Shown here piece by piece: positions 3,701 to 58,415 of a stretch of 64,000 nucleotides of DNA (position 1 is its first letter; each line of letters begins with the position of its first letter). Below the pieces are notes generated by a model. That model had not been told where the DNA came from, made no database searches, and saw only the letters and a list, made by a program, of their open reading frames with translations. Both the position numbers and the translations under genes were made by a program. The stretch is from positions 15,492 through 79,491 of the forward strand of contig JACPPH010000003.1 of assembly GCA_016191105.1 (NCBI GenBank), in the 5' to 3' direction. This stretch comes from Candidatus Saccharimonadota bacterium. Its GTDB lineage: Bacteria; Patescibacteriota; Saccharimonadia; CAILAD01; BJGX01.

Positions 3701-3863
3701 GGTTTCCAAATTCAGAGCGTTTAGGGTCATTAACACCAATCGTACCTGGGAAGCTCGACATAAGCCGCTCTAGAGCTGGTCTATAGGCATGCTCGCGAGC
3801 ATGGCCAGTCTGATATGCAGACTTAACTTCTTGAATGTATCTTTCTATTTGATTTTCTGGCAT
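762..3863 (-). CDS. Type IIL (MmeI/Eco57I-like) restriction endonuclease / N6-adenine DNA methyltransferase fusion enzyme
   Basis: 1033-aa ORF. The N-terminal PD-(D/E)xK-like nuclease motif is PDFIFL...YAEAK. Gamma-class amino-MTase motif I (ILDPAVGTATFLNE) and motif IV (VIVGNPPYSGE) are present, followed by a long C-terminal region consistent with a target-recognition domain. Local GC is about 40-42%, below the backbone. Confidence 0.8.
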   Translation of the reverse strand: MPENQIERYIQEVKSAYQTGHAREHAYRPALERLMSSFPGTIGVNDPKRSEFGNPDFIFLKRSNNSVVLGYAEAKDIDTDLDRVEKTNQLHRYAGYDNLFLTNSLEFRFYKNGEKYQTIGIGAIDDGQIELDSSNFSYLENELKAFLEQAPEKIKSGKRLALIMGAKARRIRDNVSAYLDSEDEKSAELEKIYNMIKSLLVHDLSHEKFADMYAQTLVYGLFVARYNDDTPASFTRQEARDLVPDTNPFLREFFDHIVGPHFDKRLAYIVDELCEVFSVSDVKDIVHKHLKLTDLNHDGKDPIIHFYEDFLKEYDPEERKKMGAYYTPIPVVRFIVRQVDKILKEEFGLAGGLADTTKKRFLLNTKPKRTYKDLHRVQILDPAVGTATFLNEIIKYIYAGLKGQEGRWLSYAEQELVPRLYGFELMMAPYTIAHLKLGMTLQETGVENLNERLGLYLTNTLEEGIKNQLDMFSNFGLAGEVTKEAALAAEVKDEKPIMVIVGNPPYSGESSNKTDFALDLVNKYKVEPGGKSKLQERNPKWINDDYVKFIAFAEEMIEKNGEGIVAMITNHAYLDNPTFRGMRWHFSETFDKIYILDLHGNAKKKEVSPDGGIDENVFDIMQGVAILLAVKRGRSKASAQIYLSDLYGPRTDKFAEMNVNKIPWQQIKPDNEMFYFKKEKDSEIGQSYREGIRLSDLFSINSVGVVTGADKVLIAFTEQELVKNLEAAKSNQDKRGEYLATNEIVDSNILPIDYRLFDSRLIYFESNLIERTRLKVMKSMIGKDNYCLVTIRRSRDKNADWSFVFISALMTSGSTFISSLDINYVMPLYTYDDSGNRYDNFNRDELKRLMVNIDSKTDVRLVFDYIYATLHSTSYREKYKEFLKMDFPRVPIPNNDQQFRALAELGGQLRELHLMNSSLLETLEITYPEQGSNIVEDVKYWPADTSTFWKGQEKEATVYKANTVTINKDQYFGSVPEAAWNFYIGGYQPAQKWLKDRKGRTLTNDDIVHYQKIIKALIETDRIMKEIDKVWKI

Positions 3864-9069: not shown

Positions 9070-11968
9070 CTTGACTCAGGCGAATCTGAATTTCGCCAGA
9101 GTCTATTGTAGCAGTTTTTGAGAATTCTAGATCAATTGCCGGATCGGTCGTAAGCTCGTTGGCAAGGGTCTCAGCCGAAATCAACTGAGCACATTGTTTA
9201 ATTGCCGCTAGCAATGGCTCCGATTGAGTAGCTAAGTTGAGCTTTATTCGGTTATCGACATCCAGTCCAGCCTCTTTACGAGCTTGTTGAATGTTACGAA
9301 TTATGTCGCGCGCAAGACCTTCGTTTTTGAGTTCTCGAGTAATATTTGTATCCAATTCAACTTTAAGCTCAGTGGCCTTCTTAACTATCACGTCTTTAAC
9401 ATTAAGCTCCTCACCAATTAGCGCTTGCAGTTGAGCGGAAATATCTTGTGGGCTATTGATTGTGGCATTTGAGAGGGGCTGGCGAACTTTTATGCCGGCT
9501 TCGGCCCGCACGCTCAAGCCATCATTCACGGTCTGCCGAACTAGCTTCATTTCTTCCAGCATTTTATTGTCCACAGTTCCAGACTCTGGCCAGTCACATA
9601 AATGAACCGACTCTGGAGCGTCACTCAAATCACTCACCAGATGTCTGTAAAAGTAATCGCTAGCAAAAGGTGTCCATGGAGCCAGCAGCTGGCAAATCTT
9701 AACCAGCGACCAATAAAGCGTCTGGTAGGCCTGGTTTTTATCGGCATCGTTTTGGCTTTTCCAAAAACGTCTGCGGCTGCGGCGCACATACCAATTCGAC
9801 ATATCTTCTACTAGCCCATATACTGGCCAGCTGGCTTTGGCTAGTTCAAAGTTATCGGCAGCTTTGGTGCTCAATTCTACAGTTTGTTGAACTCTTGCCA
9901 CCAGCCATTTATCTAATGGGTTATCTAATTTGCTTGGCCTATCTAAATTCGATGGCTTCCAACCGTCAATTTCGGCATACATACTGAAGAATGAAGCGCT
10001 GTTAGCTAGTGTCATAACCAAGTTCCTGTGGATATCCTTCAAAGCTGAGCGGTCAAAGCGCATGTAGTCGCCGGTTACTGCCGGAGTACTCGAAAGTAAA
10101 TAAAATCTTAAACTGTCCGCACCTTCAGTTGAGAACACCTCGTCGAGTGGGGGGTAGTTTTTGAGCCGTTTAGAAAGCTTTTGGCCATCAGCCGCCATTA
10201 CCATGCCGTTCACCAGCACGTTTTTGTAGGCAGGCTTGTTGAACAAGATCGTCGCTATCACATGCAACACATAGAACCAAAGCCTGGTTTGATCTAAGCC
10301 CTCGCCGATATAATCTGCTGGGAACGACTCTTTAAACTCGTCTTTGTTTTCAAATGGATAGTGAACCTGAGCATACGGCATGCTGCCCGACTCAAACCAA
10401 CAGTCAATCACCTCTTCAACCCGGTGATAGGTTTTGCCGTCTTTTTGTATCACCACATCATCAATATGTGGACGGTGCAGATCCGTAAATTCAGGATTTC
10501 CTAGGGCTAACTTTTTAAGCTCATCGATGCTAGAAATCACCAAAAAATCTTCTTTGTCGTCATCGTTTACCCATACAGGCATAGGAGCGCCCCAGTAGCG
10601 GTTGCGCGATATCGCCCAATCACGAGCGCCTTCCAGCCATTTGCCAAAGCGACCTTCTTTAATGTGGCCAGGCACCCATTCTATCGACTCAGAAGATTTT
10701 AGCAGCTCTTCTTTGAGCTTTGACACAGCAATAAACCAAGTGTCAATTGCATAATAAAGTAGTGGGGTTTCGCAACGATAGCAAAACGGATAAGTGTGAG
10801 CTTGCTCCTCGGCCGCATACACCATTCCTTTTTTTGTTAAATGCTCAATAATAACGGGGTCGGCCTTTTTAAAGAACAGGCCCCCAATCTCCTTGTCACC
10901 CACAGACTCGCTCACCAGGCCTGCCGAATCAACAGTAGTTAGTACGGGTAGACCGTGCTCCAAACCCAAGTTAAGATCATCTTCACCAAAAGCTGGCGCT
11001 ACATGCAAAACGCCTGTACCGTCTTCAACGCTTACAAACTCCGCCGCCCAGACTTTGTACAGGTTATCGTTCTTGGGAAGCTCCTCAAGGTTAAATACCG
11101 GCTCGTAGCCCTTGCCGACCAGGTCTTTACCCATGTAACGATCTAAGACCTCGTAAGTTTCGCTATTAAGTGCTTCCAAGCGCTTCTCGGCTAGGATTAA
11201 CTCTTCATTATTGCCTTCGTCGTCGTAGAGCTTAACCTTTACATATTTGGCATTCGGCTCGACCGCCAGTGCAACGTTACCAGGTAAACTCCAGGGTGTG
11301 GTGGTCCAAGCCAAAAAGTAAGCGCTATCGTCGACAAGCTTAAACTTAACAAATAAACTAGGGTCGGTTACACCGTCTTTATAGCCCTCATTGACCTCAA
11401 AGTTGCTCAAAGGTGTAGCGCAACGCGGGCAGTAAGGCATACTTTTGTAACCCTTATAAATGAGGTCTTTTTTGTAAATTTCTGAAAACACCCACCAAAC
11501 CGACTCTGTATAACTATTGTCGATCGTAGCGTAAGCGTTCTCCTTATCGGTCCAGCGACCAATCCGATCAAAAAAGTCTTCCCAATCTTTTTTATAGGTA
11601 AAAACTGAGTCGCGACAGGCCTGATTGAACTTCTCCAAGCCCAGCTCCATGATCTGTTTTTTACCTGATACGCCAAATTTCTTTTCAATCTCAAACTCGA
11701 CCGGCAAACCATGGCAATCCCAACCGTTGCGACGCTCCACGTATCGGCCGCGCATGGTTTGGTAGCGGCCGATAGAGTCTTTTATACTTGTCACCAAGCT
11801 ATGCCCAAAGTGCGGCAGGCCGTTGGCAAACGGCGGCCCATCATAAAAACTAAACCGCTTGCCCGATTCAGTTTTCTTTAGAGTTTTGGCAAAGATATCT
11901 TCCTGCTGCCAAAATTCTAACATTTTTTCTTCAACCTCTCTGGTATTGTATGGGGATAGTTTTTTCAT
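9053..11968 (-). CDS. ileS: Isoleucine--tRNA ligase
   Basis: 971 aa with HIGH-type motif PPFANGLPHFGHSL, GWDCHGLP (Ile-specific rather than Val), a KMSKS-like QKLSKRLKN, a CP1 editing domain and Zn-binding Cys pairs. Confidence 0.95.
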   Translation of the reverse strand: MKKLSPYNTREVEEKMLEFWQQEDIFAKTLKKTESGKRFSFYDGPPFANGLPHFGHSLVTSIKDSIGRYQTMRGRYVERRNGWDCHGLPVEFEIEKKFGVSGKKQIMELGLEKFNQACRDSVFTYKKDWEDFFDRIGRWTDKENAYATIDNSYTESVWWVFSEIYKKDLIYKGYKSMPYCPRCATPLSNFEVNEGYKDGVTDPSLFVKFKLVDDSAYFLAWTTTPWSLPGNVALAVEPNAKYVKVKLYDDEGNNEELILAEKRLEALNSETYEVLDRYMGKDLVGKGYEPVFNLEELPKNDNLYKVWAAEFVSVEDGTGVLHVAPAFGEDDLNLGLEHGLPVLTTVDSAGLVSESVGDKEIGGLFFKKADPVIIEHLTKKGMVYAAEEQAHTYPFCYRCETPLLYYAIDTWFIAVSKLKEELLKSSESIEWVPGHIKEGRFGKWLEGARDWAISRNRYWGAPMPVWVNDDDKEDFLVISSIDELKKLALGNPEFTDLHRPHIDDVVIQKDGKTYHRVEEVIDCWFESGSMPYAQVHYPFENKDEFKESFPADYIGEGLDQTRLWFYVLHVIATILFNKPAYKNVLVNGMVMAADGQKLSKRLKNYPPLDEVFSTEGADSLRFYLLSSTPAVTGDYMRFDRSALKDIHRNLVMTLANSASFFSMYAEIDGWKPSNLDRPSKLDNPLDKWLVARVQQTVELSTKAADNFELAKASWPVYGLVEDMSNWYVRRSRRRFWKSQNDADKNQAYQTLYWSLVKICQLLAPWTPFASDYFYRHLVSDLSDAPESVHLCDWPESGTVDNKMLEEMKLVRQTVNDGLSVRAEAGIKVRQPLSNATINSPQDISAQLQALIGEELNVKDVIVKKATELKVELDTNITRELKNEGLARDIIRNIQQARKEAGLDVDNRIKLNLATQSEPLLAAIKQCAQLISAETLANELTTDPAIDLEFSKTATIDSGEIQIRLSQDEKIQ

Positions 11969-12190
11969 AAAATCTCTTCCTAAAAAACAAAAAGCACCGC
12001 TTTTGCGGTGTCAGAGTTCGCCTAGTTGCGAACGGTACCATCTGACTTCCCTAAATTATTTAGGGCACTTAATTTGATACTTACGTGATCATACGGCGAG
12101 TTCTACTCTCTTGCTTAGATTTCTGCTCGCTGCTTCGCGGGGGATAGCCGCTCATTCGCCACTTAAGAGCGAAGCGCATTTATTAACTAA
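11969..12190 (-). ncRNA. Putative T-box riboswitch leader (Ile) controlling ileS
   Basis: ~215-nt leader between the TTGTCA-17-TATAAT promoter and ileS. It contains ...UUUAGGG..GAUGGUACCGUUCG..., resembling the T-box core AGGGUGGNACCGCG with a UGGU acceptor-pairing bulge. A candidate specifier, AUC followed by A, lies in GUAUGAUCACG. It ends in the terminator. Confidence 0.4.
11982..12012 (-). terminator. Intrinsic terminator/attenuator in the ileS 5' leader
   Basis: Minus-strand caccgcaaaagcggtg followed by ctttttgtttttt, about 20 nt upstream of the ileS SD (aggaag). Confidence 0.6.
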
Positions 12191-12191
12191 T

Positions 12192-12220
12192 ATTATAAGA
12201 TTGATTCAAGCTTTTGACAA
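12192..12220 (-). promoter_or_regulatory. Sigma70-type promoter for the ileS leader
   Basis: Minus-strand TTGTCA (12220-12215), a 17-nt spacer and TATAAT (12197-12192). Both hexamers match consensus. Confidence 0.5.
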
Positions 12221-12222
12221 GC

Positions 12223-12483
12223 TTAAATTATGCCCATCTGATAGCTAACATCGTCTGCTCGGGGAATATTATGCCGCCAGCTAGCCACTGGCGCACCATC
12301 GTCGCGGGTTAGCACTACCGCTGGTGCGCTAAATATATCGTATAACTGGGCTTTGCTCGAACCATCACGGCTGTTCACATCGACCTGATTCAGTGCCATG
12401 TGGCGGCGGCTAAGCTCACGCAGCAGCGATTGCAGCTCAGTATTGAAGCTTGAGTGTTTGTCGGTAAATATAAGCGCTTTCAT
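12223..12483 (-). CDS. Glutaredoxin/NrdH-like thioredoxin-fold protein lacking the CxxC motif
   Basis: 86 aa, MKALIFTDKHSSF..., with beta-alpha-beta topology and ...VDV...AQLYDIFSAPAVVLTRDDG resembling Grx/NrdH. The redox cysteines are replaced (HSSF). Lies immediately downstream of nrdR. Confidence 0.35.
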   Translation of the reverse strand: MKALIFTDKHSSFNTELQSLLRELSRRHMALNQVDVNSRDGSSKAQLYDIFSAPAVVLTRDDGAPVASWRHNIPRADDVSYQMGII

Positions 12484-12505
12484 AGCTTAATTGTATCAGA
12501 CCGAG

Positions 12506-12976
12506 TTATTTTTTTGTATCTCCAGGCTTACGCTTCTTGAGCTGGTTAAGCTCCCGCTCAAACGAGGCAATCCCCGTAAAGCTGCGATACACACTAGCAA
12601 AACGCACGTAGGCTACTTCGTCGGTCACCAGTAGTTCTTTCATAACCAAGCCACCAATTACCGTGCTCTTAAGCTCGCGCTCACCTTTGCCATAGAGCGC
12701 CTGCTCAATGCGCGAGATTATGGCCTCAATCTTTTCTACCGGAATCGGGCGCTTTTCGCAGGCCTTATAAAGCCCTTTGGCTAGCTTGTCGCGATCATAC
12801 GATTCCCGATCGCCATTTTTCTTAATAATCATTAAGTGGGGCGTTTCAATTCGCTCGTAGGTGGTAAATCGGCGCCCGCACTTGTTGCACTCCCGCCTAC
12901 GCCGAATGCCCGAGGGGTCATGCTCACGCGACTCTAGTACCTTGCTATCGCTGCTGCCACAATTTGGACAACGCAT
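12506..12976 (-). CDS. nrdR: Transcriptional repressor NrdR
   Basis: MRCPNCGSSDSKVLESR...ECNKCGRRFTTYER zinc ribbon plus an ATP-cone domain. 156 aa. Confidence 0.9.
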   Translation of the reverse strand: MRCPNCGSSDSKVLESREHDPSGIRRRRECNKCGRRFTTYERIETPHLMIIKKNGDRESYDRDKLAKGLYKACEKRPIPVEKIEAIISRIEQALYGKGERELKSTVIGGLVMKELLVTDEVAYVRFASVYRSFTGIASFERELNQLKKRKPGDTKK

Positions 12977-12982
12977 GTATGC

Positions 12983-14395
12983 CTACATCTTTCGCTTCAC
13001 AAAGCTTGGAATGTCATCGTCATCATCAAACGAAGGCTCTTCAACCTTCACGTTCTGGCGCAAGAAGGCTGGTTTATCTAGGTCGTCCTCTTCTTTGTCA
13101 TCGAAGCGCGAGCCTACTGTCTCGACAATTGGTTTTTCGCGCACTGGTTCACGTTTGCTTTCTTCATCGAGCAGATCCTTTTCCATATCAAAGCCGATTA
13201 GCTCTTCTTCTTGAGGCGATTTGGCCTTAGAATTAGCTAGATCTTCATCTGGTACCTCTGGGGCCGGCACATCGGGCTCAGCCTTTACCATTGGCTCGTG
13301 TTCACGAGTATCAAAGATTGGCTGCTCTTTTTCTTCTTCTATAAACGGCGTAGATGGTGTCTCCTCAACAATATCAACTTCTTCGATCACGGTTTCTTCT
13401 TGCAAGCCGCTAAAATCGGTGTAGCTTTGTTTTTTACGGCGCTCGCCATCAAAACCAGTGGCCACCAGGGTTACACGGATTTCGCCAGCCATGTTTTCAT
13501 CGATTACTGTACCGAAGATAATGTTGGCCTCTTGGTCGACCGAGTCGTGTACCAGCTTGGCGGCTTCTTCTATCTCGTGCATACCCATGTCGCGCCCGCC
13601 GGTAAAGTTAATTAGCACACCCTTGGCACCTTGAATTGAAACTTCGAGCAGTGGCGACTCCATAGCCTGCTTAACAGCATCAACCGCGCGAGTATCGCCC
13701 GAACCCTGGCCAATACCCATTAGGGCTGAGCCGGCATCGTGCATAATCGATTTAACATCGGCAAAGTCCAGATTCACCAAGCCATTAACAGTTATCAGAT
13801 CAGCTATGCCTTGTACACCCTGACGCAACACGTCATCGACCGTGCCAAAAGCGTCGAGTAAGCTGGTTTTGCGATCAATTATCTGCAAAATCCGATCGTT
13901 TGGGATAACTATTAGGGTGTCTACCTTGTCACGCAGCTCCTCAACGCCAGCATCGGCAATCTTGCGTCGGCGATCACCCTCGAAGGTGAAGGGCTTGGTT
14001 ACAATCGCTACAGTAAGCGCACCGACCTCTTTGGCAATGCGGGCAATTACCGGAGCGGCACCGCTACCTGTGCCGCCACCTTCGCAGATGGTCAAAAACA
14101 CCATCTCGGAGTGCTTGAGCGCGCTATAGATTTCTTCTTCGCTTTCTTCGGCGGCCTGCTTGCCTATGTCTGGGTTGGCACCGGCCCCAAGGCCTTTGGT
14201 GGCCTCTTTGCCAATATGAACCTTTTTGTTGGCCTGTGAATAGTGCAAGGCCTGGGCATCGGTGTTGATGGCAATAAAATCAATGCCGTGTAATTTGGAT
14301 TGAACCATTCTATTAAGCGCGTTGTTGCCGCCCCCGCCAATGCCGACTACTTTGATGCGTGCGAATGTTTCAATTTCTGGTAAAATTTCGGCCAT
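12983..14395 (-). CDS. ftsZ: Cell division protein FtsZ
   Basis: [17 protein letters not shown] and [11 protein letters not shown] tubulin-signature motifs, then a long acidic/Lys-rich C-terminal tail. Start chosen at [11 protein letters not shown] (14395). The longest ORF extends to 14470. Confidence 0.9.
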
Positions 14396-14758
14396 AGTTT
14401 TATGTTTCACCCCCTCTTTGATAATTCCTGTGGTAGAGCAATCTCTACCAGGTGTGTTTTGCCTTGCCACAACTCCTGGTAAACACTGGCCAAGAGTTAA
14501 GATTAGTATACAGTCGCTGGATTGTTAATACAAGAATTTTGCTCGACTTTTTTGAAAAAGCTTAAGAAGTAATTAATGTGTTCGTGCCAAAATGGCAGTG
14601 TTCTATTTTTGTGTTCATATTTTTGACTAAGTTTGGTAAAAGTTATATGCTAGGGCCAATCCTGGGCAGGATAGCACATGAACAGTCAGTGCCAGTGAGC
14701 AACGACGCTCGAGGCCAATGACAACCAAAAGTATCCGAAAATCCGACGCCAGTGGCCC

Positions 14759-15253
14759 TTGCGGGTCGAGGCATATGGAGGAAACATGAATGAAGTACAG
14801 TTAGAGAACTTGTCTCTGCCGCTCCGAAGGGGGCGTGTCCTGGTTAGATTCCAGAAGTGGGCGGGGGTGGTCAGCATCAGGCTTTACACCGAGTGTGTGA
14901 TTGGTGGGAAAACACTCGTGGCTGAGGTTCAGTCGCTCGGTGTCAGAGTCGACAGAGGTGGGGTGCAGCTTTTGAGCAAAGAGTACGACCTTGACAGAGC
15001 AACGCATGAGTGGAGGCCAGAATGGCAGACTTCTGCCGAAATTGTCTGCCTCGTGAACGGCATTGAGCAGCAGTTGTGGCACCCAACTGTACTCATCCAT
15101 ATAGCCACCCTGAGCGGGAGGCTTATGGAGCGTCGTGACTATGTAGATCGCGAATCAGACATCTACATGATTCTGAAGACATTCGGAACCAGAATCGAGG
15201 CTCTCCTAGCAAGAGGGTCTAAGAAGTGGGAACCCATCTTCGCCGACAATTAA
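14759..15253 (+). CDS. Hypothetical protein on a GC-enriched island inserted between ftsA and ftsZ
   Basis: GGAGG then ATG at 14786 (MNEVQLENL...) is the likely start. About 54% GC with GC3 bias, no known domain. Opposite strand to the flanking division genes. Confidence 0.5.
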   Translation: MRVEAYGGNMNEVQLENLSLPLRRGRVLVRFQKWAGVVSIRLYTECVIGGKTLVAEVQSLGVRVDRGGVQLLSKEYDLDRATHEWRPEWQTSAEIVCLVNGIEQQLWHPTVLIHIATLSGRLMERRDYVDRESDIYMILKTFGTRIEALLARGSKKWEPIFADN

Positions 15254-15301
15254 GCTCTTCTGCCCAGGAGAGCACCAGAAATTATCTAAAAAAGAACCTT
15301 A

Positions 15302-15331
15302 ATTCGCTGTCCAGCGAAGGGTCTTTTTTGT
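15302..15331 (+). terminator. Rho-independent terminator
   Basis: ttcgctg-tcc-agcgaa stem followed by gggtcttttttgtt. Confidence 0.5.
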
Positions 15332-15332
15332 T

Positions 15333-15408
15333 GTCATTCCCGCGCAGGCGGGAATCCAGAGAGCATGGATCCCCGATGTCGAATGCTACGCGTCGACTCG
15401 AGGATGAC
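15333..15408. repeat. Structured palindromic repeat element, copy A (76 bp)
   Basis: gtcattcccgcgcaggcgggaatc...gatgtcgaatgctacgcgtcgactcgaggatgac. About 88% identical to the copy at 21041-21112. Imperfect terminal inverted repeats (gtcattcc / ggatgac) and internal hairpins (ttcccgc-gcag-gcgggaa). Confidence 0.6.
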
Positions 15409-15417
15409 GAGGGTCGA

Positions 15418-16653
15418 TTACGGAGCCAAACTTTTGAATATCGACTTGAGTTTGCTGGTTACACCGCCCATAAAACCGCCGAGCTGGATCTTGTGGTGAG
15501 CTGTCGGTTGATCGGTATCAATTAGCATCAAGCCAACTGCGGCTGAGTACATGGGGTCGTTAATCTTGTCGTAAATACCACTAAATCCAGATAGTTTGCC
15601 AACTGTAGCCGGTAGCTTAAGTACCCGCTTAGCATAATCTGTTAAACCTGTCATATGGGCACCGCCCCCAGTTATAACCACTCCGGCGGTCAGCAGAGAG
15701 CCCTTGCTGGCCTTTTTGATCTCGCCAGCAATCATGCCAAATATCTCGTCAAGTCGGCTAAGCACAATCTTGTCGATTTCACTTCTGCGCACTACGCCTT
15801 TGCCACCAAATTCTTCTAAGTTGATCTTGGTATTGGCACCAGACTTGCCTTTTTCGGCTCTGGCAGCTGCTATCTTCACCTTTTCGGCAATATCTATGTT
15901 GGTGCGCAGGCCATACACGAGGTCCTTGGTAATATGGTTGCTGCCGACCGGCAAGATGGTGGTAAACACCACATGGCCCTCTTCGTACATCACTACACCA
16001 GTGGTTTCGGCCCCAAAATTGATTACAATTACGCCCAGCTCTTTCTGGCGTTTGGTGAGCACCGCGCGGGCTGCCGCCATAGGTGCAATTACTTGATCGT
16101 CTATGGTAATGCCCGAGCGAAACACCGCATTGGCCACATTTTTAATAGCCGGCGTGGTACCAGTAATTATATGGGTGTCAACCTCCAATCGCACCCCATT
16201 CATGCCCACCGGGTCAGCAATACCAGCTTGGCCATCGACCGTGTAACTACGGGGCATGACTTGCAAGATCTGGCGATTGGCATCTAAGTTAATGGCTGTA
16301 GCGGCCTCTTCGGCTCGGCCCAGATCCTCGCGGGTAATCTGGTGATCGGCTCTGGCTACAGCAATCACCCCACGCGAGTTTAGGCTTTGAATGTGCGCAC
16401 CGTCGATACTCACAGTCGCCCGCTCAATAGCTATGCCGCTCATACGCTCAGCCTCTTCGAGAGCCGCTGTAATCGAGCTGACAGTCTCCTCGATATCTAT
16501 AACCACCCCGCGACGCAGGCCAACCGTGGGGCTTACACCCAAGCCAATTATGCTCGGCGTCGACGAGTCTTCTTGCTGTAGGCCAACCACACACACAACT
16601 TTACTAGTGCCAATATCAAGCCCGACGTATGGAATTTCTTTGGGTTTTGCCAT
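15418..16653 (-). CDS. ftsA: Cell division protein FtsA
   Basis: 411 aa actin-fold protein. MAKPKEIPYVGLDIGTSKV gives the phosphate-1 motif. Typical FtsA length and C-terminal amphipathic tail. Confidence 0.9.
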   Translation of the reverse strand: MAKPKEIPYVGLDIGTSKVVCVVGLQQEDSSTPSIIGLGVSPTVGLRRGVVIDIEETVSSITAALEEAERMSGIAIERATVSIDGAHIQSLNSRGVIAVARADHQITREDLGRAEEAATAINLDANRQILQVMPRSYTVDGQAGIADPVGMNGVRLEVDTHIITGTTPAIKNVANAVFRSGITIDDQVIAPMAAARAVLTKRQKELGVIVINFGAETTGVVMYEEGHVVFTTILPVGSNHITKDLVYGLRTNIDIAEKVKIAAARAEKGKSGANTKINLEEFGGKGVVRRSEIDKIVLSRLDEIFGMIAGEIKKASKGSLLTAGVVITGGGAHMTGLTDYAKRVLKLPATVGKLSGFSGIYDKINDPMYSAAVGLMLIDTDQPTAHHKIQLGGFMGGVTSKLKSIFKSLAP

Positions 16654-16698
16654 ATTTAGCTATTATACACAAAAAATCAGGCCAAGCTAAATCTGTCG

Positions 16699-17466
16699 CT
16701 ACCAAGCAGTCAAGACTTCGGCACCACCTTTGGTAATAAGTATGGTGTGCTCAAACTGAGCGCTCAAACTGCCATCTTGGGTTACAAATGTCCAGCCATC
16801 GTCGGCCACATAGCCGTCGTGAGTGCCCAGGCTAGCTATGGGCTCTATGGCCACAGTCATACCCTCTTGCAAGTGCACACCGGTGCCGGCAGTGCCATAG
16901 TTAGGTATTACTGGATCCTCGTGCACTTCGTGCCCCACGCCGTGGCCGCACATGGCATAAATAGCGGCGATGTTACCGGCCTCAAAGACCTTTTCTACAG
17001 TTGAGCCAATGTCACCCACCTGAACCCCTGGCTTAATAACGTCTATAGCGGCGTCGAGAGCCCGCTGAGTGTACTTAAGTAATCGCTTGGCATTATCTGG
17101 TACTTTGCCAACTGCTATGGTTACAGCACTATCAGTTATCATGCCGCTGTAGTTTACGCCGAAGTCCAAACCCACCAGGTCGCCACTTTGTATAACTTTA
17201 TCGGCCGTTGGAATACCGTGCACAATCTCATCGTTAATTGAAATACAGATGGTGGCCGGGAAAGGTGCCGAATCGGGCGCATAGTTTAAAAAGGCAGCTG
17301 TAGCGCCATGTTTTTTGAGCTCTTTGCGACACAGTTGGTCTATTTCAAGAGCAGATACACCAGGTTTTGTGGCTGCGGCTGCTTTCTTTAAAATAGTTGC
17401 CAAGATCTCGCCACTTTGGCGAATATTGGCAATCTCGACCTCGGTCTTAATTTGATTCCGCATCAT
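16699..17466 (-). CDS. map: Methionine aminopeptidase, type I
   Basis: 255 aa pita-bread fold with the conserved metal ligands (D...D...H...E...E pattern) and ISINDEIVHGIP. Confidence 0.9.
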   Translation of the reverse strand: MMRNQIKTEVEIANIRQSGEILATILKKAAAATKPGVSALEIDQLCRKELKKHGATAAFLNYAPDSAPFPATICISINDEIVHGIPTADKVIQSGDLVGLDFGVNYSGMITDSAVTIAVGKVPDNAKRLLKYTQRALDAAIDVIKPGVQVGDIGSTVEKVFEAGNIAAIYAMCGHGVGHEVHEDPVIPNYGTAGTGVHLQEGMTVAIEPIASLGTHDGYVADDGWTFVTQDGSLSAQFEHTILITKGGAEVLTAW

Positions 17467-18017
17467 CGGTTTATTTCTCGCTCAATGACTTTGTATACGT
17501 CCTCAACCGACTGCTGTCCATCGACCTCCACAACAAATTCTTTTTGTCGAAAGTATTCGACAACTGGCAAAGTCTGGGTTTCGTAAACGCTAAAGCGCCG
17601 ATCAACTAAATGACTCAAATCGTCGTCGCGACCGCGCTTAGCCAAGCGTCTTTGGGCTTCATCGCGGTCAATCTTAAGCCAAAAAACGTGCGAGATAGTT
17701 TGATTATTTGCAATCAAAACTTCACTCAGCCACTTGGCTTGTGATACGTTGCGTGGAAAGCCATCAGCAATTATTCTATCTGTAGAATTGTATTGCTGTA
17801 ATTGCAACATCACAGCTTCGTTCACAATAGCGTCATCAACCAGCATGCCACTATCTAGTTGTTGTTCAACTTTTGTATTCGTTTTGGCATAGGTGCGCAA
17901 AAGTTCGCCAATTGGCATTAGTTCGAAGCCATGGCGCGACACCAATAATTGAGCCTGGGTGTCTTTGCCGCTGCCCGGCCCGCCTAGGAATATGTCAAAA
18001 CTTTTAAACGAAGGCAT
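17463..18017 (-). CDS. adk: Adenylate kinase (short form)
   Basis: P-loop IFLGGPGSGKDTQA, an NMP-binding region and a short LID. 184 aa. 4-nt overlap with map. Confidence 0.85.
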   Translation of the reverse strand: MPSFKSFDIFLGGPGSGKDTQAQLLVSRHGFELMPIGELLRTYAKTNTKVEQQLDSGMLVDDAIVNEAVMLQLQQYNSTDRIIADGFPRNVSQAKWLSEVLIANNQTISHVFWLKIDRDEAQRRLAKRGRDDDLSHLVDRRFSVYETQTLPVVEYFRQKEFVVEVDGQQSVEDVYKVIEREINR

Positions 18018-18023
18018 AACTTA

Positions 18024-18383
18024 TTATTTAAAAATCAATTGCCAAACACGTGGGCCAAAAACTAAAATGCCCACCAATACTGCACCAACAGCAGTTACCA
18101 ATACACCCGCCGCGGTCATGTCTTTTACGAGTTTAACCATTTGGTTTGATTCGGTATTGGTAATGTCTAATGTCTTTTCGATTGCGCTATTAACAATCTC
18201 AGCAAAAAATACCAGCACAATTGCCAAAACCACCAAGCTAGCCTGATAAAGACTTATTTGTAGTACGATCCCGGCTGCTATGGCTAAAATCGCAAAAACA
18301 AGGTGTATACGGGCGTTGCGTTCACTGCTTAAAACAACCTTAACGCCTCTTAATGCGTATTTAAAACTATCTAAGCTAACCAT
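18024..18383 (-). CDS. dgkA: Diacylglycerol kinase / undecaprenol kinase family protein
   Basis: 119 aa with 3 TM helices and a DgkA-type motif AEIVNSAIE...D. Confidence 0.75.
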   Translation of the reverse strand: MVSLDSFKYALRGVKVVLSSERNARIHLVFAILAIAAGIVLQISLYQASLVVLAIVLVFFAEIVNSAIEKTLDITNTESNQMVKLVKDMTAAGVLVTAVGAVLVGILVFGPRVWQLIFK

Positions 18384-18847
18384 TTAAATTCTCGTGTATT
18401 CCGCTTTAGTCTCTTCATGATAGCACCTTGGGCGGCCTCAAAGCTAGACCGATCTGTGGCATTAGCGTGATCGAGACCAAAAACATGTAAAAGCCCGTGC
18501 ACCAACAACAAAACCAGCTCATCGGCATAAGAATTCTTGTATTCTTTGGCTTGACTAGCGGCGATCTCACTACAAATGGCAATCTCGGCCAGTGTTGTAT
18601 CTGGCTCGTGCACTAGACCTTGATCTTCAAAATAGTTAAAGCTTAGTACGTCGGTTGGATAGTCATTACCAGCAAACTGTTCATTGAGCACCTGGATGGC
18701 TTTGGGCGACACAAAAATGCAGTTAATTACACCTTGGACCTCGACTTTCAGCACCAAAACCACGGCTTTAAGAGCTTTTTGTAGATCTGTCTCGCTCACC
18801 ACTTTGGGCAAGTCGCCTAAAATCTCCAATTTTACAGATTTAGCCAA
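18371..18847 (-). CDS. ybeY: rRNA maturation endoribonuclease YbeY
   Basis: HGLLHVFGLDH gives the H-x3-H-x5-H zinc motif. 158 aa. Confidence 0.85.
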   Translation of the reverse strand: MAKSVKLEILGDLPKVVSETDLQKALKAVVLVLKVEVQGVINCIFVSPKAIQVLNEQFAGNDYPTDVLSFNYFEDQGLVHEPDTTLAEIAICSEIAASQAKEYKNSYADELVLLLVHGLLHVFGLDHANATDRSSFEAAQGAIMKRLKRNTREFKWLA

Positions 18848-18852
18848 GATTG

Positions 18853-19296
18853 TTAGTTAAGTTTTTTAGCTACTAAGCCACTTACACGTTTACCATCGGC
18901 TGCCCCGCCGGTTTTAGCCATAACGGCACCAATTACAGCACCCATTTGAGCCTTATCGGTTGCACCCTGTTGGGCGATAACCTCATCGACAATCTTTTCG
19001 AGTTCAGAATCGTCCATCGCTTCTGGTAAATAGCCATCAATTACATCAAGCTCGGCCTGCTCTTCTTTAACTAGATCATCTCGGTTGGCATTCTGGTATT
19101 GTTCGATTGAGTCGCGGTGTTTTTTGGCCTCTTTTTGCAACACCTGGATCATCTCTTGTGGGCTTAGGTCGTGACCGACCTCTATCTGGTAGTTTTTGAG
19201 GGCAGTTTTAAGCAAACGAAGCGTGGTTAGCCTAACCTGGTCACGCTCTTTGAGCGCTTCGGCCAGATCTGATTCTAGTTGCTGCAGATTGTTCAA
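18853..19296 (-). CDS. GatB/YqeY domain-containing protein
   Basis: 147-aa helical protein matching the YqeY/GatB C-terminal domain architecture (LL.ALK...Y...). Confidence 0.8.
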   Translation of the reverse strand: MNNLQQLESDLAEALKERDQVRLTTLRLLKTALKNYQIEVGHDLSPQEMIQVLQKEAKKHRDSIEQYQNANRDDLVKEEQAELDVIDGYLPEAMDDSELEKIVDEVIAQQGATDKAQMGAVIGAVMAKTGGAADGKRVSGLVAKKLN

Positions 19297-19474
19297 ATTT
19301 ATCTCCTATGGACTTACTTTTGACTTCTTGCGAAATTCGAAATCCTATCAATTTGAGCCATATGGTCATTTTCTTGTAACGAGGCATAGCCGTAGCTATG
19401 CTGAGGAGCAAAAAATGCGCAGATGGCCAAAGTGTTAGATTTTAGACGTGAGAATGTCGAGAGTAAGTTCATTG

Positions 19475-19684
19475 TTAACGAATACCGAGTAGTTCGCGAG
19501 TTTTAGCCTCTTTACGGGCTCGTTTGCGGATGGCAATCTCGCGCTGTTCTTTTTTGCTCAGCGGTTTTTCGAAGTATTTTTTGCGACGGGCTTCGGTAAG
19601 AACACCAGATTGAGCGACTTTTTTATTAAATCGCCGAATTAGGCTTTCTACAGATTCGTCATCTTTACGGCTTACTTGAAGCAA
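19475..19684 (-). CDS. rpsU: 30S ribosomal protein S21
   Basis: 69 aa, basic, VSRKDDESVESLIRRFNKK...RRKKYFEKPLSKKEQREI. AGGAGG SD. Confidence 0.85.
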   Translation of the reverse strand: MLQVSRKDDESVESLIRRFNKKVAQSGVLTEARRKKYFEKPLSKKEQREIAIRKRARKEAKTRELLGIR

Positions 19685-19770
19685 ATCAAATCACCTCCTA
19701 AGGTGTGGTTATCTTATTGATTGGTGTAATTATATCTGAATTTAGCTAAAAACACAAGCTATTTAGCTTA

Positions 19771-19805
19771 TGGCTATATTGACTTACGAGAGCTTTTGTG
19801 GTAAC
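19771..19805 (+). promoter_or_regulatory. Putative sigma70 promoter driving the GC-rich island genes
   Basis: TTGACT-17 nt-TAACAT immediately upstream of the 19808/19883 ORF. Confidence 0.4.
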
Positions 19806-19807
19806 AT

Positions 19808-20260
19808 GTGCAAATCGTTTCGGGTTTCCGTCTCGATCTGCCATGGCAGCAACGACCCATGGACGAACCTGGAGTTTTCAATATGCCCGATTACAAAGTG
19901 TGGATCCCGGCGGACCTCCTCTCCGTAATCCAGAAGGAGGAACTGAAAGCGGCAGTCCGCTACATCACCGCCGCCGAGATGACCTGCAAGAAGCCTGATG
20001 GCGAGGTGATGATCATCGAGCCAGAGATGGTCGACGTGACCATCGTCGAGGTACCCCAAGAGAACCTCGACTGGGGAGACACAGGCGCACTTCTTGAGGT
20101 GGGCGCCTTCGACTTCGAAGATCGCATGCGCAACATCGATGAGCGCATGAAGGCCATCGCCATCGAGACCAGGCGAGTCCTGCCCATCGGCGACAAGCAT
20201 GTCTCGTGGACCTTCGACCCTCAGCCTCTCAACTGCTGGGGATCCACGAAGGTCGCCTGA
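19808..20260 (+). CDS. Hypothetical protein on a GC-rich (~60%) island
   Basis: Strong GC3 bias. Likely start MPDYKVWIPADLL... at 19883 with GGAG upstream. No recognisable domain. Followed by an agctccgg-acca-ccggagct hairpin. Confidence 0.5.
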   Translation: MQIVSGFRLDLPWQQRPMDEPGVFNMPDYKVWIPADLLSVIQKEELKAAVRYITAAEMTCKKPDGEVMIIEPEMVDVTIVEVPQENLDWGDTGALLEVGAFDFEDRMRNIDERMKAIAIETRRVLPIGDKHVSWTFDPQPLNCWGSTKVA

Positions 20261-20444
20261 AGCCGATCACTTCCTCGGGCATATTCACCAGCTCCGGACC
20301 ACCGGAGCTGGCATGCCCTTAGCTCTCAACGGATTGAGATTTAAGGTTGTGAAGCAATTTAATACTTGACTATAAGATGCAATTATGGTAGCCTTTGGCT
20401 AGGTCGTAATTCACGTCCGCACCAAACAACAAGGAGGTAGGCTG

Positions 20445-20906
20445 GTGACCGGATCACAGGCCTATGTCATCATCGCTCTGGCCATCGTCGGCCTCGTCGT
20501 GTTCATCGTGTTCGAGGTGTACGCGGGTCGAGTCCGGCGCCCAAGGATCGCCTTCGAGATCCAAGAGGCCATCGAGCAGCTCAACGCCGCGACCAGGCAC
20601 CACGTTCAGGTTCAGGCGGTGCTGGCTCTGATGGACCAGTTCGTGGAGCACCCCGAGCTCATGGCCAACCTGGCCGAGTACAGCCGTCAGACGGTCGCGA
20701 CAGCTCTGCTGAACCGAGTCAACACGCTCGGTGCAGATCTCGAGGTTGCCCAGAAGGCGCTGTCGTCGGCACGACAGAGCTATGTCCGGTATCCAAGCTT
20801 CGAACAAGACGTTCGGCGTGCTGAAATCTGGGTCGAGCAGCTGCTCCTGCAGCTCGAGGACGCCAACCAAGCAGCCGAGCTCTTCGGCGGCCTCCACTCG
20901 GTCTGA
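20445..20906 (+). CDS. Hypothetical membrane-anchored coiled-coil protein on the GC-rich island
   Basis: GTG start with a perfect AGGAGG SD 6 nt upstream. N-terminal TM helix (AYVIIALAIVGLVVFIVF) then a helical region. About 62% GC. Confidence 0.5.
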   Translation: MTGSQAYVIIALAIVGLVVFIVFEVYAGRVRRPRIAFEIQEAIEQLNAATRHHVQVQAVLALMDQFVEHPELMANLAEYSRQTVATALLNRVNTLGADLEVAQKALSSARQSYVRYPSFEQDVRRAEIWVEQLLLQLEDANQAAELFGGLHSV

Positions 20907-20928
20907 GCGACCTCCACAAAGAGGTTCG

Positions 20929-20995
20929 GGTGGGCGCACAACAGCGCCCGCCCAGCCTCTCTTCTTTTTGTAGACACAAAGGTGTCTTTTTTGTT
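20929..20995 (+). terminator. Tandem rho-independent terminators ending the GC-rich island
   Basis: gggcgcacaacagcgccc followed by a T-run, then agacacaaaggtgtct followed by tttttgttt. Confidence 0.6.
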
Positions 20996-21040
20996 TACAA
21001 ACAGATCTCTCGACTACGCTCGAAGTGACACATCCTCTAT

Positions 21041-21112
21041 GTCATTCCCGCGTAGGCGGGAATCTAGACTGGATTCCCGACGTCGAATGCTTCGCGTCGA
21101 CTCGAGGATGAC
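21041..21112. repeat. Structured palindromic repeat element, copy B (72 bp)
   Basis: gtcattcccgcgtaggcgggaatctagactggattcccgacgtcgaatgcttcgcgtcgactcgaggatgac. Paralogous to copy A. Sits at the right edge of the GC-rich island, just before hisS. Confidence 0.6.
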
Positions 21113-21125
21113 AAAATGTAGAGAT

Positions 21126-22394
21126 TCAGGATGACAACAGGACTGCTAGTTTTTCCGAAGCTTTGGCTACATCTACTGGCTCTTGATTGCCAGTTTTGAG
21201 ATCCTTTAAGATAGCTTTTTTGGCCTTAAGCTCGGTTTCGCCAATAATCAGCGCGTATTTGGCCTCGAACTTGCTGGCCCGGGCCAGCTGATCTTTCATA
21301 GTCTTGGTCGTTAGATCGATCCTGACACTCAGGCCGTCATCGAGCAGTTTTTCAGATAGGGTTAGTGCAGCCTTTTGAGCCTCGCTGCCCAAGTAAACCA
21401 CATAAACATCGGGCTTTTGGGCCTCCAGCTTGTGGCCGGTTGCCTCGAGCTCTAGCTTGATACGCTCCAGGCCCAAACCAAAGCCAACTGCTGGGGTTGG
21501 CTGCCCGCCTAGTAGCTCCACCAAACCATCATAGCGGCCGCCGCCGCCAAGTGAATCTTGCGATCCCTGGCGCGTACCCTTGAATTCAAACACCGTTTGA
21601 TTATAGTAATCCAAGCCTCGCACTAAGCGTGGATTTACATCGTAACCAATTCCCAGATCATCTAAGGCCTCCAAAACGGCTGCAAAGTGTTCTTTGCTAG
21701 ATTTATCAAGATAATCTAAGATCTGCGGAGCTTTTTCGATCAGCTCTTGCATATTAGCCTCTTTGCTATCCAAAAGACGCAACGGATTGCTCCCCAGCTG
21801 TTTTTTGGCCAAGTCTGTAAGCTTAGGCTCATGCGGCTTAAAGTAGTCGCGCAAAGCCTCTTGGTAGCGCTTGCGAGCTTCGAGAGAACCAATACTATTC
21901 ACCTGCAATGAGGTTGCCAGTCCTAAACGGGTATAAAACCTATTGGCCAGCGCAATGGTGTGCACGTCGGCAGTAGGGCTATCAACACCAAAAATCTCCA
22001 CTCCCAACTGGTGGTGCTGGCGATATCTACCCTCTTGAGGACGATCATAGCGGAAAAGCGGCTCTATATAGAACAGACCTACGGGCTTGGGCCAGCTTGG
22101 CATGCCGTTTTCTAGGTAGGTTCTTACCACGCCCGCAGTGCCCTCGGGCTTAAGCGCCAAGACACCTTTACCACGATCAGTTAAGGTGTACATTTCTTTA
22201 TGCACCACCTCGGTGGCCTCACCAACTCCTCTAATGAATAGCTGAGCATCTTCGAGAATTGGAGTCGAAATACGGCTTAGACCGGCAGCTTCGCAGATTT
22301 CGGTAAAGGTTTGCACTATGTGCTGCCAGGCTATCTGATCGGCAGGCAAAATATCTTGCATGCCACGTACCTTTTGAAATTGATTTTTGGCCAT
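21126..22394 (-). CDS. hisS: Histidine--tRNA ligase
   Basis: 422 aa class II aaRS. MAKNQFQKVRGMQDILP..., motifs 1-3, and HisRS-specific GGGRYDGL in the anticodon/His-binding region. Confidence 0.9.
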   Translation of the reverse strand: MAKNQFQKVRGMQDILPADQIAWQHIVQTFTEICEAAGLSRISTPILEDAQLFIRGVGEATEVVHKEMYTLTDRGKGVLALKPEGTAGVVRTYLENGMPSWPKPVGLFYIEPLFRYDRPQEGRYRQHHQLGVEIFGVDSPTADVHTIALANRFYTRLGLATSLQVNSIGSLEARKRYQEALRDYFKPHEPKLTDLAKKQLGSNPLRLLDSKEANMQELIEKAPQILDYLDKSSKEHFAAVLEALDDLGIGYDVNPRLVRGLDYYNQTVFEFKGTRQGSQDSLGGGGRYDGLVELLGGQPTPAVGFGLGLERIKLELEATGHKLEAQKPDVYVVYLGSEAQKAALTLSEKLLDDGLSVRIDLTTKTMKDQLARASKFEAKYALIIGETELKAKKAILKDLKTGNQEPVDVAKASEKLAVLLSS

Positions 22395-54291: not shown

Positions 54292-54624
54292 TTAAACAAA
54301 TTAGTTGTTTAAAAATAAATCGGATCTCCGAGGCAAACGACTACAAATATAGCCGCTACCTCGAAAATTCGAAGTATTTATTTGTATTTGGATATAAACT
54401 TGCTGGAGAATAAATATCTCCAAATTGCTAGCTATAAGACCCTGCCACAAAACTTCATTCCGTTTCAGAATAGTCCGTTCCGACTGCAAATTGAATATAT
54501 TTTTCTCAACGTAGATACCTCTACGCCTTACAAAATATATCAATTTTCGCCAAAAACGCTTCTGTCCTGAATTCGAAAGCAAGTTTTGCAGCAGTGTCTT
54601 TGCAAAAAGAAACACAAAAAGTCA

Positions 54625-58150
<3,526 letters not shown>

Positions 58151-58415
58151 ACTTTTTTCATTTCTTTTACAATTAGCTAGCAATTTAGAAATACTAAACT
58201 GCTTTAAATTGCTCGTTTTTACCCAAATAACATATTAGGCTGTCAAGAAACAAAAAATGGTCACTTTTTAGGGCGACCACATACGAACAAACAACTGCCA
58301 GTGCTATCTTATAGCGTGGGCGCCTCCTTGGGATGTTTGCATGCTCATATGTGATTACCTAAATTATCTTTCCAATGATAGCAAGTTTTAATCTGTTTGT
58401 AAAGAGTTTTCTAGT

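Follow-up and report, generated by a model that had tools for sequence, protein, structure and literature searches.

A 64,000-nt stretch of a 'Candidatus Saccharibacteria bacterium' metagenome-assembled genome (contig JACPPH010000003.1; hereafter the window), the same sequence of which was also assembled from run SRR12113392, carries on its minus strand a conserved gene run that includes hisS, rpsU, map, ftsA, ftsZ and nrdR. Two gaps in this run hold islands of plus-strand open reading frames (ORFs) with promoter-like and terminator-like sites of their own: island A, of ~950 bp between ftsA and ftsZ (14471-15417), with one ORF (ORF A, 14759-15253), and island B, of ~1440 bp between hisS and rpsU (19685-21125), with two (19808-20260 and 20445-20906, the latter ORF B2). 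Between the island terminators and the stop codons of ftsA and hisS, that is, at convergent junctions, lies a short palindromic repeat, once at each site (copy A, 15333-15408; copy B, 21041-21112). An earlier note on this DNA likened the repeat to a MITE (miniature inverted-repeat transposable element) or a repetitive extragenic palindrome (REP), or else to an attachment-site scar, and took its position as suggesting a role in island integration or a footprint of it. Here we show that each copy is an inverted pair of tagged hairpins belonging to a known repeat class (dRS3, CGTC-1 REP or NTS/SRM), found in a new host and in a compact heterodimeric form. We propose that the pairs are probably gene-less, MITE-like derivatives of a cassette in which two such arms flank an ssn nuclease gene, inserted separately from the islands.

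Two copies of an outward-facing hairpin pair

The positions given in the earlier note are correct, and copies A and B are the sole copies in the window. They agree in 66 of 76 aligned columns (87%, where ~88% had been claimed), or 92% without the indel, the differences being six mismatches and a single central 4-nt indel. The 20-mer ATTCCCGCGNAGGCGGGAAT, from the core of the left half, and a 31-mer from the right half each have two sites in the 64 kb, those in copies A and B, with 0.01 and 0.00 predicted from shuffled sequence; no further copy or half-copy was found in the window with three mismatches allowed. No direct repeat or target-site duplication, a check that the earlier note had suggested, flanks either copy.

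Each copy consists of two tagged hairpins, not one palindrome, with the tags facing outwards (Table 1). The left arm, on the plus strand, reads (T)GTC-ATTCCCGC-GCAG/GTAG-GCGGGAAT-CCAG/CTAG and forms a perfect 8-bp stem with a 4-nt loop. After a spacer of 5-9 nt follows the right arm, which reads on the minus strand (C/T)GTCAT-CCTCGA-[21 nt]-TCGGGG/TCGGGA-ATCCAT/ATCCAG: an inverted, degenerate tagged hairpin, the stem of which, of the sister type ATCC[C/T]CGA, differs from that of the left arm and the loop of which is enlarged to 21 nt. This loop holds a small hairpin of its own, GTCGA...TCGAC, which accounts for the SalI and XhoI sites. The motifs picked out by eye—the ends GTCATTCC and GGATGAC, the hairpin TTCCCGC-GCAG-GCGGGAA and the palindromes GTCGAC and CTCGAG—are all present in the sequence, and what had been described as terminal inverted repeats are the two outward-facing tags. 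One pair of right arm A is a G-T when read on the minus strand, and a C-A mismatch when read on the plus. Beyond copy B stands an extra partial arm, complementary to CATCCTCTA at 21032-21040. Folding, for which both strands had been proposed, is moderately better than that of shuffled sequence (z-scores of -2.1 to -3.5 as RNA or DNA, on either strand).

Table 1. Coordinates of the two hairpin pairs, their arms and the adjoining features
Feature	Position	Strand	Description
Copy A hairpin pair	15332..15409		tag bases included
Left arm A	15332..15359	plus	TGTCATTCCCGCGCAGGCGGGAATCCAG; 8-bp stem, 4-nt loop; fits the SRM pattern
Right arm A	15365..15409	minus	CGTCAT-CCTCGA-[21-nt loop with GTCGA..TCGAC hairpin]-TCGGGG-ATCCAT
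Copy B hairpin pair	21040..21113		
Left arm B	21040..21067	plus	TGTCATTCCCGCGTAGGCGGGAATCTAG; fits the SRM pattern
Right arm B	21069..21113	minus	TGTCAT-CCTCGA-[loop with GTCGA..TCGAC hairpin]-TCGGGA-ATCCAG; stem more degraded than in arm A
Extra partial arm	21119..21137	minus	TTGTCATCCTGAATCTCTA; repeats the right-arm end (AGGATGACAA present twice); provides the hisS TGA stop
Terminator-like hairpin and T run of ORF A	15303..15329	plus	immediately to the left of copy A
Terminator-like hairpin and T run after ORF B2	20972..20993	plus	before copy B; conserved in L139 and L140
ftsA	15418-16653	minus	adjoins copy A
hisS	21126-22394	minus	adjoins copy B

The neighbours named in the earlier note, ftsA and hisS, stand, and since both genes are on the minus strand the repeats lie at their 3' ends, ending 9 nt past the ftsA stop and 13 nt past the hisS stop. 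Two other parts of that description hold better for one site than for the other: copy A follows the island terminator immediately (a 3-nt gap), whereas copy B lies ~47 nt away from it, and GC enrichment is strong in island B (0.60-0.64) and modest in island A (0.54-0.56).

Several other identities were considered and rejected. An origin from a tRNA or tmRNA gene fails as the window contains neither gene type, and an integron attC site or a CRISPR repeat fails for want of core sites, arrays and associated genes. At gathering thresholds, an Rfam scan of the whole window returned 23S and 5S rRNA only, and a permissive scan of 15250-15480 gave chance-level matches only. Four matches of the 20-mer CGCGTCGACTCGAGGATGAC in species-representative genomes were all due to chance, falling in GC-rich, coding-like sequence in which the element is absent.

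The left arm as an NTS/SRM hairpin

The commonest REP of Neisseria meningitidis, with 241 copies, is the 21-mer ATTCCCGCGCAGGCGGGAATC (Bertels and Rainey). It contains dRS3 (ATTCCC-N8-GGGAAT), a member of the CGTC-1 family of tagged palindromic repeats; in REPs of this family an 8-bp stem encloses a loop of 4 nt and is followed by a CCA tail, and they occur mostly as dimers, just downstream of ORFs and at convergent junctions (PMC3733652). Chenal et al. (Nat Commun 2025) extended dRS3 to the 28-nt NTS, with the consensus CGTCATTCCCGCGMAVGCGGGAATCYRG, and to a degenerate 'Ssn-related motif' (SRM), recognised by SsnA, a 94-aa single-domain GIY-YIG nuclease of the cd10448 type (PMC11893778). SsnA binds the NTS hairpin as single-stranded DNA only and in one orientation, cutting a few bases upstream of the tag, and two features matter for cutting as well as binding, the GTC lying upstream of the palindrome and the C that follows it; homologues of ssn occur across phyla flanked by SRMs, in an insertion sequence-like NTS-ssnA-NTS layout (PMC11893778).

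The left arms fit this description closely. Against the NTS consensus, for which the published criterion is at most one mismatch (PMC11893778), copy A scores 27/28, the first C being T, and copy B 26/28 (first C to T and M to T), one mismatch over that limit. The SRM search pattern, HGTCWYN(0-2)YYVSBRHN(0-5)WNVSBRGN(0-2)RNCYNB (PMC11893778), has two matches in the 64 kb, which are the two left arms, with 0.16 expected. As DNA, the arm folds into the 8-bp stem and 4-nt loop and keeps both the GTC 5' of the palindrome and the C directly after it. The features of CGTC-1 REPs are likewise present (a TGTC tag, an 8-bp stem starting with AT, a 4-nt loop and a CCA/CTA tail), as is their setting: an inverted pair outside genes, 9 and 13 nt past the stops of ftsA and hisS, at convergent junctions. 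We assign the left arm, by its sequence, to the canonical NTS/SRM hairpins, a CGTC-1 REP that contains dRS3. The comparison with MITEs and REPs was, to this extent, well judged, the whole element being an inverted pair of such hairpins.

REPs near stop codons in Escherichia coli stabilise mRNA or tune the end of translation. An unlikely alternative, which could coexist with an origin from ssn cassettes, is that the repeats are structured RNA elements of 3' untranslated regions, stabilising the ftsA and hisS mRNAs or tuning the end of their translation. They start 9 and 13 nt after the stop codons, their minus-strand RNA folds with -32.6 and -26.4 kcal/mol, in the minus-strand transcript the right-arm mismatch turns into a G-U pair, and CGTC-1 REPs in general lie mostly just downstream of ORFs (PMC3733652). 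However, the z-scores of the minus-strand folds are only -2.1 to -2.5, there is no match to an Rfam family, and close relatives are without the element at hisS. Conservation across phyla, moreover, extends beyond the pairing to the sequence itself, a sign that a protein recognises it, and SsnA shows no RNA binding (PMC11893778).

In N. meningitidis, SsnA and NTS together reduce transformation with NTS-bearing DNA (PMC11893778), and both copies in the window border loci the content of which varies among close relatives. The repeats might on these grounds be Ssn targets used by the host, limiting recombination across variable cassettes in a naturally competent epibiont. This would be compatible with derivation from ssn cassettes, and we give it little credence: the window has only two sites and no ssn gene, and relatives with equally variable loci have no hairpins.

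Islands and hairpins at the same junctions in relatives

At the hisS-rpsU junction, relatives with HisS 58% (L135) and 85% (L147) identical have gaps of 107 and 85 nt and no island, and one at 73% (L146) has a different, 75-aa GC-rich ORF and no hairpin. In two others, L139 (87%) and L140 (89%), the hisS site holds GC-rich DNA (0.59-0.61) that is not homologous to the window island; both keep the terminator hairpin AAAAAAGACACC..GTGTCT and are without the repeat and its surrounding block of ~130 nt. At the ftsA-ftsZ junction, the gaps of L135 and L136 (FtsA 66-68%) measure 276-293 nt and have no island, and L134 (FtsA 89%) carries an island-like ORF on the plus strand, hardly similar to ORF A, and, at the exact position of copy A, a lone short tagged hairpin, CGTCATCCTAAGCTTGCTTCAGGATC. 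A scan of the relatives' 2.5-21-kb segments found no SRM.

Both junctions are empty or hold unrelated content in relatives with HisS or FtsA 58-89% identical. They are gene-turnover hot spots, taken up by small GC-rich cassettes with their own promoters and terminators, and comparison of the sequences separates the islands from the repeat, as cassettes that appear to turn over at fixed junctions irrespective of it.

Among the island ORFs, B2 counts as a genuine gene: its homologues of similar length comprise 108 cluster representatives, for which we found no names. The public gene call at this place is a 161-aa minus-strand ORF (20454-20939). The plus-strand ORF begins with a hydrophobic, transmembrane-like segment, and because of this start and the 108 representatives plus is the likely coding strand at 20445-20939. 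The island ORFs gave nothing significant against Pfam, PHROGs, NCBIfam and PADLOC, and the island proteins resemble neither each other nor those of the relatives' islands except for a weak 20-aa match. ORF A and the L134 ORF are almost unalignable and their terminator stems differ; a 34-nt stretch between the ORF A stop and the terminator (15253-15286, AGCTCTTCTGCCCAGGAGAGCACCAGAAATTATC), which occurs once in the window, is 100% identical in L134.

As close relatives have no copy at hisS, the pair there appears to have been inserted after the split from the 85-89% relatives. The block of ~130 nt in which it lies, and of which the extra partial arm is a part, replaced the last five HisS codons (21126-21140): the protein reads ...SEKLAVLLSS in the window against ...SEKLAE(A/S)(I/L)NK in relatives, ending in VLLSS instead of EAINK or ESLNK with its length unchanged, and the new TGA stop comes from the partial arm of the inserted block (TGTCATCCTGA). 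A derived right arm, missing from the L134 hairpin, is common to copies A and B, which are therefore related by copying within the lineage.

These comparisons bear on the proposal that the repeat is an attachment site or scar of GC-rich island integration, comparable with dRS3 as the site at which the Nf phage recombinase of Neisseria acts. Each copy abuts an inserted island of plus-strand genes that is missing in more distant relatives, and dRS3 in Neisseria is a known integration target near variable genes (PMC11893778). Yet the element adjoins each island at a single side, a duplicated partner copy being absent from the window even at three mismatches, and the window contains no integrase or recombinase. 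At hisS, L139 and L140 have GC-rich DNA and the terminator without the element, L146 has a different cassette without a hairpin, and L147 has no island at all; at ftsA, L134 combines an island-like ORF with one short hairpin only. Nor do copies always flank GC-rich inserts, a point that the earlier note had put forward for checking: the GC-rich stretches at ~4.0-5.0, 31.9-33.1 and 60.3-62 kb of the window have none. The scar reading is largely refuted, and we hold it to be highly improbable.

We suggest that the apparent link with island edges arises because plus-strand island genes create rare convergent junctions, with terminators, in a mostly minus-strand region; REPs of the CGTC-1 family are reported to accumulate at convergent junctions (PMC3733652). 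Most likely, the element is selfish or neutral DNA and not a mark of island integration.

Elsewhere in the window, a weak tagged hairpin, AGTCATTAGGGT...GCCCTAATG, lies at 32922-32955 in an intergenic gap beside the GC-rich 31.9-33.1 kb and may be due to chance. The low-GC left end of the window encodes a 1033-aa Type ISP restriction-modification enzyme (762-3863, minus strand; N6_Mtase and Type_ISP_C).

Gene-less pairs, ssn cassettes and known systems

The class extends well beyond the window. A 24-mer of the left arm occurs in at least 120 viral contigs, including Neisseria-type arrays, in none of which, or of the other viral contigs, does the exact 31-mer of the right half have a match. A search for the left arm linked to the end of the right arm yielded 8 metagenome contigs, 7 of which carry the same two arms with unrelated flanks. 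One of these elements, in a low-GC contig with rpsU and a HIT gene (L129), belongs to the window's own subfamily: it is 77 nt long and gene-less, includes the inner GTCGA..TCGAC hairpin and is placed 18 nt beyond the stop codon of rpsU. Across the fetched metagenome and viral loci (1.4 Mb), which were selected by the motif itself and so illustrate associations with a bias, there are more than 60 distinct gene-less pairs of 58-130 bp with tags outward.

In two of these loci (L126 and L128), 74-nt gene-less pairs alternate with two long versions, the ends of which are identical in kind and which hold between the arms a 95-aa GIY-YIG ORF (Pfam PF01541, E=5e-17). A tblastn search with the L126 ORF found seven Ssn-like gene copies in six loci, and all of them (7/7) lie between two tagged hairpins, one in forward orientation at 30-96 nt upstream and one in reverse orientation at 20-82 nt downstream. 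Around these genes the stems of the two arms are often of different types, with ATTCCCGC in the left arm and ATCCCCGC in the right arm of several, the asymmetry also found in the window. Against NCBIfam the Ssn-like proteins found no specific model, and against solved structures the L126 protein gave spurious WD40 repeat matches only. The L126 locus (10900-13600), like L128, is a tandem array of ~160-nt units, each a 74-nt hairpin pair plus a conserved spacer of ~85 nt; the gene lies between the arms in two units, and one gene copy has an in-frame stop.

An alternative source of such pairs, put forward for the identical 21-mer of Neisseria, is the REPIN, a REP doublet copied by a single-copy REP-associated tyrosine transposase (RAYT; Y1, IS200-like). 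In the window, too, two REPs stand in inverted orientation with a short spacer between them, and Bertels and Rainey assign the Neisseria doublets of ATTCCCGCGCAGGCGGGAATC to a Group 2 RAYT. We nevertheless think this improbable. The Pfam-annotated genes of the window include no Y1 transposase, and a search with E. coli RayT gave no homologue in either the window or the 1.4 Mb of NTS-bearing loci, which is a weak test; the tag is CGTC/TGTC, whereas RAYT cuts GTAG; Di Nocera et al. saw no RAYT with CGTC repeats on its flanks (PMC3733652); and the gene that hairpins do flank in the fetched loci, in all seven cases, is Ssn-like. No dedicated transposase for CGTC repeats was known in 2013 (Di Nocera et al. 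2013, PMC3733652).

Our preferred reading, derivation from ssn cassettes, would run as follows. A cassette that lost its ssn gene would leave a non-autonomous, MITE-like element; this may have been copied as a unit within this Saccharibacteria lineage; and insertion would be tolerated between a terminator and the stop codon of the convergent gene, so that copies persist where they do least harm. If the genome encodes an Ssn, the sites might also be cut on incoming or replicating single-stranded DNA, as in Neisseria.

Several points weigh against this reading. To our knowledge, mobilisation of hairpin pairs by Ssn has never been demonstrated, and the derivation of MITE-like elements from Ssn cassettes figures in the literature as a hypothesis only. 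Tags on opposite strands do not fit the same-strand cutting of IS200/IS605 elements. The right arms fail the SRM pattern, owing to the long loop and the stem mismatches, and may no longer be recognised. Copy B arrived within the ~130-nt block and not as a clean 72-nt insertion. A tblastn search found no intact ssn gene in the 64 kb, to which both this absence and the copy number of two refer, the only GIY-YIG trace being a pseudo-ORF in the 23S rRNA gene. Finally, the counts that associate hairpins with Ssn-like genes come from the motif-selected loci and share their bias.

The pseudo-ORF was considered as the cognate nuclease and rejected, its intact homologues residing in an rRNA site without SRM flanks. 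The 23S gene itself (54613-58158, minus strand) measures 3546 nt against a 2925-nt model, with insertions of ~300 and ~70 nt near model positions 280-312. These hold the 74-codon pseudo-ORF (57601-57825, minus strand), which has one in-frame TGA; intact homologues of 74-79 aa, 54-73% identical, occupy the same 23S position in L141 and L144.

A stronger version of the cassette reading, in which the gene-less pairs are active non-autonomous transposons copied in trans by Ssn-type GIY-YIG nucleases, is possible, although we doubt it. The derived arm shared by A and B, the empty hisS site in the 85-89% relatives and the replacement of five HisS codons all fit such copying. Were it true, Ssn cassettes would constitute single-strand-DNA mobile elements of a new class, which cross the boundaries between phyla, reach even the tiny genomes of Saccharibacteria, land beside essential genes and can rewrite their 3' ends.

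Finding a near-consensus NTS in a Saccharibacteria genome widens the range of hosts known for a motif whose sequence is conserved across phyla. That long forms, which carry an ssn-like gene, and short forms, which do not, share two unlike ends is the pattern expected if Ssn cassettes yield MITE-like derivatives, and the dated empty and filled sites in relatives can be used to work out how the element inserts. The repeat can now also be separated from the small GC-rich cassettes at the ftsA-ftsZ and hisS-rpsU junctions.

Set beside known systems, the pair differs from attachment and attC sites: there is one copy per island, no recombinase in the window, and ends unlike GTTRRRY cores. Of a classical MITE it has the imperfect inverted ends and not the target-site duplication. 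It shares with REPIN-RAYT systems inverted REP doublets that behave as non-autonomous units, but with a CGTC/TGTC tag in place of GTAG and, in the fetched loci, a GIY-YIG nuclease gene where a RAYT would be expected, none having been found. Like IS200/IS605 elements, it has subterminal hairpins that are unlike at the two ends and of a kind recognised as single-stranded DNA, and no target-site duplication; those elements, however, use an HUH Y1 transposase and both their hairpins act on one strand, whereas in the window the two tags occupy opposite strands and a GIY-YIG nuclease is the candidate enzyme. A further comparison is with Neisseria dRS3/NIME (PMC3733652). Neisseria pairs in the fetched loci measure ~102-106 bp, have conserved RS spacers and are usually clustered, whereas the window pairs have a 5-9-nt spacer, two stem types and solitary copies; the ATTCCC-N8-GGGAAT core is identical in both, as are the tag, the 8-bp AT-starting stem, the 4-nt loop, the CCA tail and the occurrence as dimers within 20 bp of stop codons at convergent junctions. 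From the NTS/SRM system as described (PMC11893778), the window pair departs in having no ssn between or near its arms, a right arm with a structured 21-nt loop and stem mismatches, two copies in the window as against hundreds, and a host, a Saccharibacteria (Patescibacteria) genome, that is not named in the main text of that study. It agrees with that system in the near match of the left arms to the NTS consensus (27/28 and 26/28), in their fit to the SRM pattern and in the outward-tag layout of NTS-ssnA-NTS.

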